Assembly (NCBI GenBank): GCA_963768105.1
Contig: CAVYGR010000004.1
Coordinates: 118,019 to 182,018, forward strand
Direction of reading: 5' to 3'
Length of the DNA: 64,000 nucleotides
Origin: Candidatus Dormiibacterota bacterium
GTDB lineage: Bacteria > Chloroflexota > Dormibacteria > Aeolococcales > Aeolococcaceae
Of the stretch, positions 2,131-35,274 are shown in pieces. Position 1 is the first letter of the stretch, and the number at the start of each line of letters is the position of its first letter. A program made the translations under genes and the position numbers. A model generated the notes under the pieces. The model saw only the letters and a list, made by a program, of their open reading frames with translations, searched no databases and was not told the DNA's origin.

Positions 2131-2204
2131 TGGGCGGGCCAGGATTCGAACCTGGGACCGTGGGGTTATGAGCCCCCTGCTCTAACCGGCTGAGCTACCC
2201 GCCC
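2131..2204 (-). tRNA. tRNA-Met (anticodon CAT). As an elongator-type tRNA it could alternatively be tRNA-Ile2 (lysidine).
   Basis: The reverse complement reads GGGCGGGTAGCTCAGCCGGTTAGAGCAGGGGGCTCATAACCCCACGGTCCCAGGTTCGAATCCTGGCCCGCCCA. It has a 7-bp acceptor stem, D-arm, CAT anticodon loop, T-arm GGTTCGAATCC and discriminator A. CCA is not encoded. Confidence 0.85.
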
Positions 2205-25421: not shown

Positions 25422-26366
25422 TTGGGGAGCAGGCCTGGTACCCGGGCGCCGGATCGTGTCAGTGCATTAGCGAGGGAAGCAACTATCGCGACGCACGTCC
25501 ATCGACTGGTGCGACACCTTTGGGTGCTCGCCGTGGCTGCACTGCTTGTCGTGCTTCTCGCGCGTCCGACCGCAGTCCCCGCCGCGCCGATGCTGCGAAA
25601 CCTCGCCGCCATCCAGATCAACGCAGTGGTCGAGAACACCGCGACGGTCACGGCCCTCGCGGTGCGACCGCCGCGGACCATCGTCGTCCAGCCCGGCCAG
25701 TCGCTCGCGACCGTCGCGGCCGCGTACGGCGTCACCGCATCGACAATCCGCTGGGGCAATCAGCTCACCCCGTCGATGGCACCCGCAGCGGGGTCGACGC
25801 TGCTCATTCCTCCCGGGCCGGGAGCCCTCGTCGAAGTGCTCCCCGGCGAGACCCCCACGCGATTCGCCGCCCGGCTGCATCTCGACGCCGCGGTCATCCT
25901 CGAGTACAACGCCCTCAGCAGCAACGCGCCGATGACCGGCGGCTCATTTCTCCAGGTACCACTCGCGCGCGCGCCGACGGGGTCGCTCATCGCCTCGTAC
26001 TTCGTCGATGCGCAAGACGGGGTGCCCGGTGTCCCCGCAACCGCGCCACTCGTCGACAACTTTCCGTATGGACAGTGCACCTACTACATCGCGAGCCGGC
26101 GAGCCGTCACCTGGGGAGGCAACGCGGGCGAGTGGTGGTGGGCCGCACGCAGTCACCGCCCCGAGGGAGAGGTTCCCGTGCAGGGAGCGATCGTCGTCTT
26201 CAATATCGGATGGGTCGGTCATGTCGCCTACGTCGAGCACGTGAACCTCGACGGAACCTTCATCGTCTCCGAGATGAACTACCGAGCCGGCGGCGGAGGA
26301 TGGGGCCGCGTCGACTACCGCACCATCAGCGCTTCCGATCCCGCCATTCTTGGATATATCTACTGA
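25422..26366 (+). CDS. Secreted LysM-LysM-CHAP peptidoglycan hydrolase.
   Basis: A signal/TM region (LWVLAVAALLVVLLA), two LysM repeats (IVVQPGQSLATVAAAYGV..., VEVLPGETPTRFAARLHL...) and a C-terminal CHAP domain (YGQCTYYIASRR...GWVGHVAYVEHV). Confidence 0.8.
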   Translation: MGSRPGTRAPDRVSALAREATIATHVHRLVRHLWVLAVAALLVVLLARPTAVPAAPMLRNLAAIQINAVVENTATVTALAVRPPRTIVVQPGQSLATVAAAYGVTASTIRWGNQLTPSMAPAAGSTLLIPPGPGALVEVLPGETPTRFAARLHLDAAVILEYNALSSNAPMTGGSFLQVPLARAPTGSLIASYFVDAQDGVPGVPATAPLVDNFPYGQCTYYIASRRAVTWGGNAGEWWWAARSHRPEGEVPVQGAIVVFNIGWVGHVAYVEHVNLDGTFIVSEMNYRAGGGGWGRVDYRTISASDPAILGYIY

Positions 26367-26391
26367 GCGTGTCGGCAACGCGCGGTGTCTA

Positions 26392-26513
26392 GGCGAGAGG
26401 GAGGGACGGGGCCGCTCTGCTCAGCTTGCTCGTTCGCTCTTTCGCGCAAATAAATTATCGCGCTCTTTCGCTCGCTCCCAAATTCGCTGAGCGTCCCCGT
26501 CCCTCCCTCTCGC
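26392..26513. repeat. Palindromic element A (122 nt). It has a perfect 19-bp terminal inverted repeat (GCGAGAGGGAGGGACGGGG / CCCCGTCCCTCCCTCTCGC), an inner 7-bp stem GCTCAGC/GCTGAGC and an AT-rich core GCGCAAATAAATTATCGCGC.
   Basis: Read directly from the sequence. It begins 25 nt after the stop of the plus-strand LysM-CHAP gene. Confidence 0.8.
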
Positions 26514-26580
26514 TTGGCACGTGTTGTGCCTCGCTGACGCTCCACGAGGTTCCGGGTTGCGGATCGTGAGGCACTGAGCC

Positions 26581-26988
26581 GCTGGCTCACTCGCATCCTT
26601 CGTAGTCGAGGTCCTGGCGGGTGGTCTTTCCGCTGACGACGGTCACGGTGGCCGTTTGCGGCGACAAGTTGCTCCCCGCGCAATGACCGACGAGTACGTA
26701 CGTGCCTGGCGGAAGGTTGAACTCTTACGTCCCTCCGGTGGCAACGGAGGCCTCCGCAAACGCCGCTGAGCTCCCTAGGGTGAAGTTATCAACAGTCCCG
26801 GCCATGGGTGTGGGAGGTACTGAGATCGAAGGCGGAACCGTGGAGCAGCCATGCTTCGCACCGACGACCGTTCCTCCCGTGAACACGGGCATGTCCAGAT
26901 TAAGCGGGAGTACCTTGCGCTGGCAGTAGGCCGCGGAGTGCTCGAGCGCATCCCGCCAAAGCGGCTGCGATCGCAAACGTGCTGACAA
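26581..26988 (-). pseudogene. Gene remnant: an 87-codon ORF, then an in-frame TAA, then 35 more codons ending ...PGTYVLVGHCAGSNLSPQTATVTVVSGKTTRQDLDYEGCE, which resembles the C-terminus of a PPC (pre-peptidase C-terminal)-like beta domain.
   Basis: The same reading frame continues across a single TAA at 26725-26727. There is no convincing N-terminal domain. It lies between the two palindromic elements. Confidence 0.3.
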
Positions 26989-27120
26989 GTGCGAGTCTGC
27001 CTTCCACCTAGAAAGCGTACCCGTCAGGCGCCGAACAGTTCCACCATTCCCGACGTGGAGGCGTGACGAAGGAGCTAGTGAAAATCTCCCGCTGCCGAAG
27101 CGACGGCACTACGCGCGCTA

Positions 27121-27241
27121 GGCGAGATGGGGGACACGGACTCGCAGCGAATTTGATCGCGCCCGAGCGAGTGCGATAATTTATTTGCGCGAACGAGGGC
27201 GCGAGCAAGCTGAGCGGCGAGGCCGTGTCCCCCGTCTCGCC
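27121..27241. repeat. Palindromic element B (121 nt), an inverted copy of element A. Its 19-bp terminal stem GGCGAGATGGGGGACACGG / CCGTGTCCCCCGTCTCGCC contains one G-U position.
   Basis: The reverse complement of B aligns with A through GCTCAGCTTGCTCG, TTCGCGCAAATAAATTATCGC and CAAATTCGCTG. The stem sequences differ from A but stay self-complementary. It ends 31 nt before the stop of the minus-strand response-regulator gene. Confidence 0.8.
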
Positions 27242-27272
27242 AAACCACAACGCGAGGGGCCTCAGCGGAGGG

Positions 27273-27971
27273 TCACCCTGAAAAGCGGTACCCGATCCCC
27301 GGCACGGAGTGGATGTAGGTTGGTTTCTCCGCGTCCGGCTCGATCTTGCGACGCAGCCGGTAGACGTGCGCGTCGACGGTACGGGTCTCGATCTCGACCT
27401 CGTAGCCCCACACGCGGCGGAGCAACTCCCCGCGGCTCATCACCTGACCCGGGCGCGATGCGAGCAACGCGAGCAGGTTGAACTCGGTGAGTGTGAGCAT
27501 CACCTCCTCGCCATCGCGGAACACCTGGCGGCGACCGAGGTCGATGGTGAGCCCCGGGAACTCGAACCGGTCACGGGGCTGCTCCTGCGCTGAGATCTCA
27601 CTGCGCCGCAGGTGCGCGCCGATGCGCGCCATCAACTCGCGCACCTCGAACGGCTTGGTCACGTAATCGTCGGCACCCAGCTCGAGCCCGACGACGACGT
27701 CGATGGTGTCGCTCTTCGCCGTCAGCATGATGATCGGCACACGCGCACCCTCGGCGCGCAGGCGCCGGCACACGTCGAGACCGCTCATGCCCGGCAGGTT
27801 GACATCGAGGATGATCAGGTCGGGATTCTGTTCGCGGGCGAGGTTGAGTCCCTCGACGCCGGTTGCGGCCTCGATGAGCGTGTGGTTCTGTGCGCTCGTG
27901 GCAAGGCGAACCACCTCGCGACTCGGCGGGTCGTCCTCGACGATGAGGATGGTTTTCCCGGCTCCGCTCAT
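27273..27971 (-). CDS. OmpR-family two-component response regulator (REC plus winged helix).
   Basis: LIVEDDP...D (phospho-acceptor region LIILDVNLPGMSG), C-terminal trans_reg_C with the TVDAHVYRLRRKIE motif. Its ATG overlaps the HK stop (TGATG). Confidence 0.85.
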   Translation of the reverse strand: MSGAGKTILIVEDDPPSREVVRLATSAQNHTLIEAATGVEGLNLAREQNPDLIILDVNLPGMSGLDVCRRLRAEGARVPIIMLTAKSDTIDVVVGLELGADDYVTKPFEVRELMARIGAHLRRSEISAQEQPRDRFEFPGLTIDLGRRQVFRDGEEVMLTLTEFNLLALLASRPGQVMSRGELLRRVWGYEVEIETRTVDAHVYRLRRKIEPDAEKPTYIHSVPGIGYRFSG

Positions 27972-29702
27972 CAGTTGGGCACCTCGATGAATGTGGAGAT
28001 GCGCTTCACGAAGTTGGCCACCTCGATTGGTTTGGTGATGTAGCCGGAACAGCCGGCAGCGAGCGCTTCTTGTTCGTTGCCCTTCATGGCATTGGCGGTG
28101 AGCGCGACCACGGGGACCCCCGAGGTCTTCGGGTCGGCCTTGAGGATCCGGGTCAGAGTCAGCCCGTCCATCCCGGGCAGCTCCACGTCCATGAGCACGA
28201 GATCGTAGACCTTGGACCTCAACTTGTGGAGGCCCTCCTCGCCGTCGACCGCGATGTCGACGTCAAAGCCACTGCCGAGCAGGACCATCTTGGCCAGGTC
28301 GCGGTTGCTGGCGTTGTCCTCGACGAGCAGGATGCGATTGTGACGGTGGCCGTTGAGCACCTCAATTCCTGCCAGAGGTAGCCGGAACGTGAAGACCGAT
28401 CCGCGGCCCGGATCGCTCTCGAGCGAGATGCTTCCGCCGTGGAGGTCCACGAGCTTACGGGTCAGCGAGAGCCCGAGCCCGGTGCCCTCGACCTGCCGCG
28501 TGGCGGCGTGGTCGAGCTGGTAGAACTCGTCGAAGATGCGCGTCTGGTGCTCGAGCGGGATGCCCACGCCCGGTGTCGCCAACGTCGACGATGAGGTCCT
28601 CGGCATCGGCATGCGCCGACACCCAGACCTTGCCGCCCTGCGGGGTGAACTTGATGGCATTGCTGAGCAGGTTGTAGAGCACCTGCTTGAACTTGCTCTT
28701 GTCGGCGCGTATCTCGAGGTGGGTTGGGACCACGTCGATACTGAGGTCGATGTCGCGCCGCTCGCTGAGCGAGCGAATGACGTTGTGGACTTCCTTGACC
28801 GCATCCTGAACGCCGAAGCGATCGTAGGAGAGCTCCATCCGCCCCGCCTCGATCTTGCTCAGATCGAGGACGTCGTTGACCAGCTCGAGCAGATGCTTGC
28901 CGGACGCGTGGATGTTCTGCAGGCATTCCTGGCGCTGCTGCGGCGTGAGATCGACGAGATTGTCCTTGAGGATCTCGCTGAAGCCGAGGATCGCATTGAG
29001 CGGCGTGCGCAACTCGTGGCTCATGTTGGCCAGGAACTCGCTCTTCAGTCGCGAGATCTCGGCGATCTGGGCGTTGGCCACCTCGACCTCGCGCTTCTGC
29101 GACGCGATCTCACCGAGCTGGGCGCGCTGCGCGGTGTACAGCCGGGCGTTGTCGATGCTGATCGCGGCCTGGCTGGCGATGATCCGCATCAGCGCCTGCT
29201 CGATGCTCGTGAACGGCTGCACCTCGCGCCGCGCAAGCGTCAGCGCTCCGACCAGTCGCTGCGGCGACTCGAGCGGCATCACCAGGCATGATCGAGGCGC
29301 GTATGCGAGACCGAGGGTCTTGAAGCGTCGATCCTTGGTCGCATCGGCGACGGAAACGAGCTTGCGACGCTGCGCCGCCCATCCGACGATGCCCTCGCCG
29401 AGCTCGAATCGAGCGACCTGGCCAAGGTTGTCGGTGAATGGGAACGTCGCAATCGCTGAGAGGGCGCGGCCGTCCTCGTCGAGCAGGAACACCGTCGCCG
29501 CGTCGCAGTCGACCAGGTCGGCGGCGGCCTTGAGCATGAAGTCGATCGTCTCTTTCAGCTCCAGACTCGACGTGAAGAGGTTACCGACCTGGCCCAGAAG
29601 GTCGACAATGACCTTGTCGTCCATCGCAGACCCGAGTATACCCGCGAATTTCGGCCCCGGCTGACTGTCGTGCAATTGCAATCGATCCAGTGCAGTGCTC
29701 AT
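27971..29702 (-). CDS. Hybrid histidine kinase (GAF - HisKA - HATPase_c - REC), interrupted by a +1 frameshift.
   Basis: GAF domain, H-box [16 protein letters not shown]-box LLSNAIKFT and G1 DTGVGIP (split across frames at the CCC run 28549-28551), G2 GTGLGLS, then a receiver domain RILLVEDN...[14 protein letters not shown]. Its ATG overlaps the etfA stop (ATGA). Confidence 0.75.
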
Positions 29703-34746: not shown

Positions 34747-34797
34747 TCCCGGCGGCGGCCGGGCAGTCTATCCGGGCGCCCCGGGTAGACTGCCCCG

Positions 34798-35274
34798 ATG
34801 CCCAAGAAGTACACCGCCGCCGAGCATGTCATCGACCCGGCTCACCGCTACATCGCCACCATCGCGACTGATCGCGGCGACATCGTCATCGCCCTCGATC
34901 CCGCACGCGCGCCCAAATCCGTCAACAACTTCGTGTTCCTCGCCCGCGAAGGTTTCTACGACGGGCTCACGTTTCACCGGATCGTCGACGACTTCGTGAT
35001 TCAGGGCGGCTGTCCCGAGGGAACCGGACGGGGCGGACCCGGATACAAGTTCGACGACGAGCCGGTGCAGGGCGAGTACGAGCCAGGCGCCGTCGCCATG
35101 GCCAACTCCGGGCCGAACACGAACGGCTCTCAGTTCTTCATCTGCGCGGTCGACGACCGCCACAAGCTCACCAAGTCGTACAACCTGTTCGGTCAGGTCG
35201 TCAAAGGCATGGACGTGGTCGGCGCGATCCGCCAGAACGATGTGATGCGGTCGGTGACCGTCGTCGAGGAGTGA
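34798..35274 (+). CDS. ppiA: Peptidyl-prolyl cis-trans isomerase of the cyclophilin type.
   Basis: FHRIVDDFVIQGG, GGPGYKFDDE, NSGPNTNGSQFFI. Confidence 0.9.
   Translation: MPKKYTAAEHVIDPAHRYIATIATDRGDIVIALDPARAPKSVNNFVFLAREGFYDGLTFHRIVDDFVIQGGCPEGTGRGGPGYKFDDEPVQGEYEPGAVAMANSGPNTNGSQFFICAVDDRHKLTKSYNLFGQVVKGMDVVGAIRQNDVMRSVTVVEE

Follow-up and report, generated by a model that had tools for sequence, protein, structure and literature searches.

Several families of bacterial palindromic repeats bear on a pair of inverted elements, here termed A and B, that lie between a LysM-CHAP peptidoglycan hydrolase gene and an OmpR-type response-regulator (RR) gene at positions 26392-27241 of a 64,000-nt stretch of DNA (the window) from a Candidatus Dormiibacterota bacterium (assembly GCA_963768105.1, contig CAVYGR010000004.1). 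The ERIC/IRU sequences of Enterobacteriaceae and Vibrio are imperfect palindromes of ~127 bp that are best conserved at their centre, lie extragenically in transcribed regions by gene ends at moderate copy number, are inherited largely vertically at orthologous sites, and keep their structure by paired changes; we know of no demonstrated transposition. The REP, BIME, and REPIN repeats of Proteobacteria are extragenic palindromes found at gene 3' ends and between convergent genes, often as inverted pairs, with REP/BIME stabilizing upstream mRNA, attenuating transcription, and binding gyrase or IHF. A single REP is 20-40 nt long, and both its stem and a 5' tetranucleotide are conserved; such repeats number in the hundreds and are associated with a RAYT gene. 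Correia elements (CREE) of Neisseria and miniature inverted-repeat transposable elements (MITEs) measure ~100-150 bp, have inverted ends, form hairpins in transcripts, and may carry outward promoters, terminators, or RNase III sites, and MITEs are marked by conserved terminal inverted repeats (TIRs), target-site duplications, and insertion polymorphism between strains. The attC sites of integrons are imperfect palindromes of 57-141 nt at gene 3' ends that bound variable genes, with a conserved structure, a variable sequence, conserved outer R/L boxes, a variable centre, extrahelical bases, and direct arrays beside intI.

A further family, the Tuberculosis Rho-independent terminator (TRIT), is much shorter than the elements described here. 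TRIT is a conserved palindromic hairpin without a U-tract, mostly bidirectional, that occurs in 147 copies in M. tuberculosis, is tied to gene termini, and is restricted to Mycobacterium, which is GC-rich and poor in canonical terminators (PMC3152330). Most TRIT copies lie inside coding sequence at ~-8 relative to the stop, and a motif-binding factor was proposed (Gardner et al., 2011; PMC3152330). Elements A and B belong to a hitherto undescribed family of imperfect palindromes, ~130 nt long, that lie at gene 3' ends and are restricted to Dormibacterota, and literature searches returned no description of such repeats in this phylum.

Elements A and B and their family

The components of the two elements and the genes that they follow are:

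26385..26518, + strand: element A, full covariance-model match (cmsearch 135.9 bits, E 2e-26; RNA minimum free energy (MFE) -67.9 kcal/mol, z -7.8)
26392-26513, + strand: element A, hairpin proper; the core strand is that of the upstream LysM-CHAP gene
26393..26420, + strand: A, 5' arm of outer stem P1, G-rich; pairs with 26486-26513 (arms of 28 nt, 93% complementary; P1 columns covary family-wide)
26421..26485, + strand: A, conserved asymmetric core (alignments, fold)
26486..26513, + strand: A, 3' arm of P1, C-rich (repeat search, fold)
26514..26530, + strand: A, conserved 3' tail TTGGCAC..GTTGTGCC (flank listings; motif common to most copies at several loci)
27116..27248, - strand: element B, full covariance-model match (cmsearch 127.7 bits on - versus 40.5 bits on +)
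27121-27241, - strand: element B, hairpin proper; the core strand is that of the upstream RR gene
27214..27241, - strand: B, 5' arm of P1, read on - (repeat search)
27149..27213, - strand: B, conserved core, with middle helix P2 an intact 8-bp helix
27121..27148, - strand: B, 3' arm of P1, read on - (arms of 28 nt, 89% complementary)
27100..27120, - strand: B, conserved 3' tail TAGCGCGCGTAGTGCCGTCGC on the - strand (flank listings)
25422..26366, + strand: LysM-CHAP peptidoglycan hydrolase gene, start uncertain (Pfam CHAP 3.8e-15, LysM 1.6e-9)
27273..27971, - strand: OmpR-type RR gene (Pfam Response_reg and Trans_reg_C)

Element A starts at 26392, 25 nt after the CHAP stop (TGA at 26364-26366), and 31 nt separate the end of element B at 27241 from the RR stop (TCA on the + strand at 27273-27275). 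The repeat search gave an inverted match between them of 101 nt at 79% and terminal arms of 28 nt in each, 65 nt apart, and blastn aligned A with the reverse complement of B at 79.5% identity over 122 nt. A shared 21-mer, TTCGCGCAAATAAATTATCGC, has exactly two occurrences in the 64-kb window, one on each strand, against 0 expected in shuffles, and A and B were the only family copies identified in the window by blastn and the covariance model. The 19-bp stems are perfectly complementary in A and contain one T-G pair in B. RNA folds of all four strands had z values of -7.8 to -11.2, with 0/200 dinucleotide shuffles as stable (MFE of B -73.5 kcal/mol on the - strand and -86.8 kcal/mol on the + strand), and DNA folds had z values of -6.0 to -9.3, also with 0/200 shuffles as stable. 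The coordinates, motifs, stop distances, inverted relationship, self-contained hairpins, and 19-bp stems of the original prediction, which was made from the letters alone, were therefore recovered in full, and its proposed comparison with shuffled controls favored real structure for both RNA and DNA.

Further copies were sought from the RR gene outward. Many long contigs from metagenomes and metagenome-assembled genomes (MAGs) encode an RR protein identical at every residue, and ten 20-kb loci (L001-L010) were taken from these. Blastn with A and B found 18 further copies in these ten contigs, nearly always one ~25 nt past the RR stop, usually one by the CHAP stop, and few elsewhere. A covariance model (R1) built from 16 copies matched at least 53 distinct copies at 100-142 bits in Candidatus Dormibacterota/Dormibacteraeota MAGs, the RR-encoding contigs, and the window. 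When one genome per GTDB species was scanned with a degenerate core pattern, the pattern matched many taxa; model R1 had no match in 75 + 8 pattern-matching loci of other taxa among the matches listed, and identified 99 further copies (96 + 3) in 103 loci from a separate, complete scan of metagenomes. The family thus totals ~150 copies at 90-142 bits, and all of the named ones are in Candidatus Dormibacterota MAGs. Six viral-contig pattern hits contained no true family match and blastn gave none in phage and plasmid collections, and a phage or plasmid origin was rejected on these grounds. Rather than a single local duplication without other copies, A and B therefore belong to a sizeable family, although its members do not always occur as inverted pairs and many are single copies at other loci. 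Standard annotation does not account for the elements, as had been supposed: Rfam 15 over the whole window gave no family for them, and at E up to 10 the element region matched only sub-threshold plant and animal microRNA precursor models (34 bits versus a gathering score of 168), attributable to their being generic long hairpins. The sole match in the window at gathering score was a tRNA gene at 2131-2204 (-).

The anatomy of the element was derived from the alignments, read on the model-preferred strand, with stem boundaries from ViennaRNA. The reverse strand of the same copies scored only 30-49 bits versus 100-142 bits on the preferred strand, and the element is therefore asymmetric. Each copy has a conserved asymmetric core of ~76 nt within a fast-evolving outer stem P1 of ~25 bp, with a G-rich 5' arm, a C-rich 3' arm, and a short outer clamp, GTG(GT)...(A)CAC. 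A conserved junction (TGCTCAG on the left, AAATTCGCTG on the right) is followed by TTG/CAA and then by P2, a variable and partly covarying helix of 8-11 bp, with 8-bp examples being CCGCTCCC/GGGAGCGG, CAGCGCCC/GGGCGCTG, and TCGCGCCC/GGGCGCGA in B; P2 is degenerate in ~40% of copies, A among them. Beyond P2, a pyrimidine-rich 6x6 internal loop leads to a GCGC/GCGC stem that closes a conserved A+T-rich loop of 12 nt, the sequence of which is AAATAAATTATC in A and B, compared to AAGCAGATTGTC in most copies. The core of A reads GCTCAG, CTTG, the pyrimidine internal loop, the GCGC stem with its loop, and CAAATTCGCTG. Invariant core blocks of the family include GCTCAG, TTCGCGC, and CGCTG, and the 3' tail motif GTTGTGCC follows most copies. 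Insertion of the core into pre-existing terminator hairpins was considered as an explanation of the variable stems and rejected, as the stems of the copies are recognisably homologous and bracketed by conserved GTGGT and ACAC..GTTGTGCC.

Pairing in P1 was maintained throughout the family. In the 53-copy alignment, all 23 of the 23 P1 pairs changed on both sides and 94.5% of cells were standard pairs, values reached by 0/500 shuffles, and sliding the partner by 1-3 columns lowered pairing to 39-47%. Seven more pairs covaried in P2, with only ~80% of their cells paired, and the RR-side orthologous copies taken alone had double changes at 21-22/23 P1 pairs with 95-96% Watson-Crick cells. The alignments were fitted to the model and lean towards structure, a caveat rendered minor by the effect size and the slid controls. 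The compensatory pattern first noticed between A and B, which two copies alone could only suggest, was therefore very strong with 53 and then 149 members, and the hairpin is kept over deep time by selection or a pairing-restoring process.

Gene-end location, inheritance, and paired loci

Flanking genes were called on both sides of 117 copies, of which 73 lay between convergent, 36 between co-directional, and 8 between divergent genes. By locus cluster these were:

Convergent genes: 73 copies, 22 locus clusters
Co-directional genes, core strand the same as the gene strand: 29 copies, 7 locus clusters
Co-directional genes, core strand opposite: 7 copies, 4 locus clusters
Divergent genes: 8 copies, 5 locus clusters

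Measured to its 5' end, the model match is usually found 5-50 nt past a stop codon, and the family shows a strong preference for gene ends, convergent junctions most of all, with upstream genes of unrelated function. Upstream genes included those for a dihydrolipoyl-dehydrogenase-type oxidoreductase, an aminotransferase, QueF, cation efflux, Glu/Gln-tRNA synthetase, Fe-S assembly, Fur, a decarboxylase, DNA ligase, a Crp-type regulator, RR, CHAP, acyl-CoA dehydrogenase, and thiolase; this lack of functional relationship led to the rejection of a regulon operator. Fifteen of 16 close pairs had a face-to-face arrangement in which both cores followed the strand of the gene beside them; the 16 pairs represent just two loci, the RR-CHAP junction and a second convergent junction. 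Canonical hairpin-plus-T terminators occurred at chance in the 19 kb around the elements (6 versus 5.6 expected). Several open reading frame (ORF) calls in public contigs cross the elements.

Clustering of upstream flanks by tblastx defined ~46 loci; 25 copies follow RR and 16 follow CHAP, and the orthologous CHAP-side copies (n=16) have a median of 18 nt from stop to model start. The nearest relative of most copies is the same locus in another genome, which together with the orthologous clusters indicates that the family is mostly vertical and old. Between genomes sharing the identical RR protein, identity was 69% at RR third codon positions, 47% in P1, and 71% in the core, blocks of which are invariant across these genomes; P1 therefore changes no more slowly than silent sites while its pairing persists.

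Signs of occasional within-genome copying or gene conversion were also present, as may be read from variants shared within a genome. The window copies A and B share the loop AAATAAATTATC, which is rare elsewhere, L001a and L001b are 90% alike and share GCGCCAC, and the lineage-specific copy L002:494-628 is closest to L002:12109-12244 at 78%, both with a derived CCGG/CCGG variant; L007:16944-17074 is another lineage-specific copy. Other copies have been rearranged or have decayed. In the CHAP-adjacent copy L041:1238-1371, the flanks and arms have the usual orientation and the asymmetric core is flipped, consistent with arm-to-arm recombination inverting the 76-nt core. Around L007:16944-17074 the arms are multiplied in tandem as nested hairpins (L007:16890-17230; left arm twice, with a GCTCAG-like motif, and right arm four times), which suggests slippage or repeated partial duplication. 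Partial copies at L002:10867-10973 (model positions 18-118) and L088:4740-4823 (26-110) directly adjoin full copies, so that tandem or nested fragments are present at some loci.

Some genomes retain one element only of the RR/CHAP pair, together with a remnant of its partner. At loci lacking the CHAP-side element, the remnant consists of a GTGGT-type flank and one arm or its last bases (L003:10990-11030, L007:12590-12640, and L009:10870-10905), which identifies loss by deletion rather than an empty target site. Comparison of orthologous loci for evidence of insertion accordingly showed variable interiors and one-element genomes but no clean empty sites, as sites without an element were too diverged or held deletion remnants.

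The DNA between A and B holds variable cargo, which belongs to neither element:

26587..26892, - strand: pseudogene of a small protein (motif PGTYVLVGH...), with an in-frame stop at 26725-26727

This pseudogene is homologous to a protein of 102 aa encoded at L007:415-723 (tblastx 54% over 56 aa, E 1.6e-13). Coding potential of the ORFs over the elements and the interior was rejected, with no signal in GC content at third codon positions (GC3) in the A-B interior or in ORFs overlapping the elements and with the interior being a pseudogene. Across genomes, paired elements are spaced by 32 nt to 2.1 kb with unrelated interior contents (CYTH, PMT_2 glycosyltransferase, lipoprotein, and hypotheticals), and in many genomes each element is anchored separately, 16-27 nt past the stop of its own gene. 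A scan of the DNA enclosed by 14 element pairs, and of +/-10 kb around the RR locus of ten genomes, identified no transposase or recombinase and no autonomous element with the same ends. Inspection revealed no variable target-site duplication, and the flanks GTGGT and ACAC..GTTGTGCC were alike at different loci.

These observations bear on the proposal that A and B arose by a single recent local inverted duplication or are the TIRs of one decayed foldback transposon spanning 26392-27241. Their mutual inverted identity of ~80%, the shared rare loop variant, and the pseudogene in the interior would suit such an origin. Both positions nevertheless hold orthologous elements elsewhere around unrelated interiors, some genomes have the RR-side copy only together with a remnant of the other, and many single copies occur at other loci, so that the orthologous loci refute this origin, which we regard as scarcely credible. 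The foldback or MITE-like element with ~120-bp terminal repeats of the original prediction likewise did not survive the separate anchoring, the variable interiors, the lack of a transposase there, and the genomes with one element, and its supposed terminal arms are the least conserved part. An invertible A-B segment was rejected, given that the CYTH cargo, wherever present, has a single orientation relative to RR.

Further features of the RR locus and the window were recorded. The RR-CHAP gap (L001-L010, 10700 to ~13200) holds a PMT_2 glycosyltransferase, a CYTH gene, hypotheticals of 105-337 aa, a pseudogene, or nothing, and in two of the loci (L006 and L007) the RR stop is directly adjoined by the PMT_2 gene, without any element. 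The RR protein (232 aa) is 100% identical across genomes differing at ~31% of third codon positions (L001-L010:10001-10699) and was listed in 708 blocks of the sequence collection; it is under purifying selection unusually strong for a two-component regulator. The GAF/histidine-kinase/receiver gene upstream of RR (27971-29702, -) is split at 28521-28570 into two overlapping frames, with the L001 orthologue aligning by tblastn in frame -3 over aa 1-390 and in frame -1 over aa 378-575; the orthologues are single ORFs of 575-576 aa, and the split is due to a frameshift (pseudogene) or to an error in sequencing. Between co-directional genes at 34747-34802 lies a short and very stable hairpin (arms of 23 nt, loop of 3 nt; -0.75 kcal/mol per nt across the 51-nt gap); it is unrelated to the family in sequence and is possibly an ordinary terminator-like stem.

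Comparison with described repeats and candidate functions

The Dormibacterota family resembles ERIC/IRU in its length of ~125-130 nt, its best-conserved centre, and its gene-end position, orthologous sites, and paired changes. It differs in belonging to another phylum, in its near-perfect 25-bp outer duplex with full turnover between species, and in its clearly asymmetric core with a promoter-like motif on one strand. This likeness is one of kind only; homology to the enterobacterial 127-bp consensus is made less likely, indirectly, by the lack of Rfam, phage, and plasmid matches and by the confinement of confirmed copies to Dormibacterota. TRIT is, as an analogy, the closest conceptual precedent, as the Dormibacterota element is also conserved, palindromic, without a U-tract, multi-copy, at gene ends, and confined to one GC-rich lineage; it starts 5-50 nt past the stop, however, and has a hypervariable stem around a conserved core, and TRIT is set apart by its position and taxon. 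The gene-end, convergent, and inverted-pair context is comparable to that of REP/BIME/REPIN, whereas the unit of ~130 nt, variable stem, unique asymmetric core, and copy number apparently in the tens differ from the REP/REPIN-RAYT system, and no RAYT-like gene was identified in the loci examined, namely the element interiors and +/-10 kb around the RR locus. A promoter-like motif and a long duplex are shared with Correia elements and MITEs, but the outer arms are the least conserved part of the Dormibacterota element (47% between orthologues versus 71% in the core) though paired. Variable genes between elements at two loci recall attC sites, from which the family differs by a conserved centre, a variable outer stem, and inverted pairs; the attC end motif RYYYAAC...GTTRRRY was absent from the element alignments, and no integrase family was called within +/-10 kb.

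The explanation that we favor, and hold about equally likely to be right or wrong, is an ERIC/REP/TRIT-like gene-end hairpin that is co-transcribed, sets or protects transcript 3' ends, insulates convergent units, and probably acts with a loop-reading protein, roles proposed here as they have been shown or proposed for REP/BIME, ERIC, and TRIT. The element would be transcribed as the tail of its upstream gene and, at convergent junctions, would be read from both sides, which is proposed as the reason why its pairs are strictly Watson-Crick and not G-U. The very stable hairpin would define or protect the transcript 3' end, possibly by blocking 3' exonucleases, by acting as a terminator that lacks a U-tract and is probably assisted by a factor, or by serving as a processing site, and would insulate convergent transcription units, with the conserved loops offering a contact surface for a putative protein. 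In the window, A may serve the CHAP gene and B the RR gene, and the 600 bp between them would be unrelated decaying cargo in a locus that varies between genomes.

Several points weigh against this explanation or lower its certainty. Its transcription, 3' ends, and protein partner are all inferred, the gene calls came from a crude GC3-based finder calibrated on the known genes of the window, and the copy number of a few tens per 3-Mb genome is an estimate derived from an 851-kb metagenome contig carrying at least 5 copies. The co-directional orientation preference is just 7:4 at the locus level. An element is present at only 1 of ~6 convergent junctions in the window and therefore is not the general terminator of this genome, and loss of the copy in some lineages indicates that single copies are dispensable. 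On the core strand of P1, G-U was rarer than A-C (12 versus 29 cells; counted once per pair and locus in 149 copies, 27 versus 70 events), the opposite of selection on coding-strand RNA alone; this result fits both-strand constraint (convergent transcription), DNA constraint, or mutational bias. The hairpin of a canonical intrinsic terminator is present but its U-tract is not, as the 3' flanks TTACAC, TAGCGC, and CCGAGA lack a T run past the stem, and neither A nor B was called as a unit in the terminator scan. A U-tract is reported to be required by mycobacterial RNA polymerase (PMC3993855), and plain intrinsic termination is therefore doubtful. Among the candidates of the original prediction, a new structured RNA or bidirectional terminator family came closest in that a dispersed, conserved, and structured gene-3'-end family without an Rfam match was found, but the wobble counts do not single out coding-strand RNA. 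The missing wobble signature and a conserved promoter-like motif on the opposite strand allow for DNA-level and promoter readings beside the favored one. The motif is represented in the window by:

27153..27180, + strand: sigma-70-like promoter match on the non-core strand of B, TTGATC-16-GATAAT, with TG before it
26454..26481, - strand: sigma-70-like promoter match on the non-core strand of A, TTGGGA-16-GATAAT

These were the only two sigma-70-like matches in the 19 kb scanned, both within elements and opposite the core strand, and they raise the question of whether the core is a predicted sigma-70-type promoter (TTGnnn, 16 nt, GAyAAT) that would fire back through the 5' arm to give antisense RNA to the 3' end of the upstream gene and, in the minority orientation, would drive the neighbor gene. 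The architecture TTG-16-GA(C/T/A)AAT is kept in ~124/144 copies, 82/144 score at least 9/12 compared to 0.5% of shuffles (the core strand mostly scores 7), and the invariant loop positions correspond to -12, -11, -9, -8, and -7, the variable one to -10, with a spacer fixed in length and varying in sequence. All copies derive from one ancestor, however, and recurrence is not independent evidence; the CCGG and CCCGG variants exchange the "-35" TTG together with its partner (TTG/CAA to CGG/CCG), so that pairing and not the hexamer is kept there; the first -10 base is G, not T; the GCTCAG, TTCGCGC, and CGCTG blocks and the 25-bp stem are left unexplained; and in 29/38 locus clusters transcription from the promoter would run into a gene's 3' end rather than towards a gene start. 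A promoter as the main function is thus distinctly improbable. Still less probable, indeed very improbable, is an independently transcribed structured small RNA family, or a small RNA derived from the 3' untranslated region, with loops that bind a protein or pair with targets. The very strong covariation, the conserved single-stranded loops, the clear strand preference by sequence, and a position just past stop codons that suits the latter type are set against a core strand without a wobble signature, no promoter-like motif upstream on the core strand or terminator after it, no Rfam relative, and tens of diverged copies with hypervariable stems, which would be unusual for a trans-acting RNA.

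Alternatively, the elements could be a selfish non-autonomous mobile element (MITE- or REPIN-like) that has spread through Dormibacterota genomes and stays at gene ends since insertions are harmless there and keeps its hairpin because a mobilizing enzyme, or arm-to-arm repair, needs or produces it. The family is dispersed and multi-copy, and the lineage-specific copies closest to one of the same genome (the L002 pair), the derived loops shared within genomes (A/B and L001a/L001b), the partial, nested, and multiplied copies in L002, L088, and L007, and the deletion remnants all speak for it. Yet the arms are least conserved whereas transposase-bound TIRs or REP sequences are most conserved, the same flank motifs recur at different loci in place of variable target-site duplications, the loci examined lack a transposase or RAYT-like gene, viral, phage, and plasmid collections hold no copies, and most copies are orthologous between genomes whose synonymous sites are saturated, which would make any spread ancient and rare; we consider mobility unlikely. 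A DNA-level site is quite unlikely: here a folded strand or cruciform would be bound by a nucleoid or topoisomerase protein (BIME-like) or by a recombinase (attC or CTX attP-like), and face-to-face pairs would mark docking places for foreign-gene exchange. It draws on the strict Watson-Crick pairing without a coding-strand wobble preference, on DNA folds far more stable than shuffles, on the flipped core of L041:1238-1371 as a case of arm-to-arm recombination, on the two independent loci where extra genes always lie between face-to-face elements and never between a gene and its own element, and on the enrichment at convergent junctions, where positive supercoils accumulate (BIME, gyrase). Against it, no recombinase, integrase, or transposase family was called within +/-10 kb in ten genomes, the attC-like end motif is missing, inverted pairs would yield inversion and not cassette exchange, yet the CYTH cargo has one orientation relative to RR, the 76-nt spacer would make cruciform extrusion from duplex unfavorable, and convergent gaps being safe for insertions equally explains the variable content. 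The hairpin-based recombination site that had been listed among the candidates found nothing positive in its favor, with no recombinase nearby, pairs inverted rather than direct, and no attC-type end motif.

Implications for Dormibacterota

The family is new and phylum-restricted, but in kind it belongs with the intergenic palindromic repeats of bacteria, a well-known class, and the findings demonstrate no new mechanism. A bolder proposal, to which we give only a low probability, combines the strict Watson-Crick pairing, the promoter-like hexamers at a fixed 16-nt spacing, which are conserved where a -10 element requires it, and the cargo between two elements at two loci into a sequence-specific, factor-dependent Dormibacterota module. 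In one form, this would be a new type of U-tract-less terminator or processing site with an antisense promoter, in which the loops would recruit a dedicated protein and the embedded promoter would make antisense RNAs to the 3' ends of some tens of genes; in the other, it would be a folded-DNA docking site, with face-to-face pairs marking places of gene exchange between convergent genes.

Dormibacterota are an uncultured phylum abundant in peat, permafrost, and soil, and to our knowledge nothing is known of their transcription-unit ends or repeated DNA. The alignment of ~150 sequences with exceptionally clean covariation is ready for use as an RNA/DNA family model, which would improve annotation of intergenic regions and gene 3' ends in Dormibacterota MAGs and provide a target for metatranscriptome mining. 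Long near-perfect palindromes of this kind can also break assemblies and mislead gene callers. Together with TRIT, the family is a second case suggesting that GC-rich, terminator-poor lineages use sequence-conserved hairpins at gene ends.

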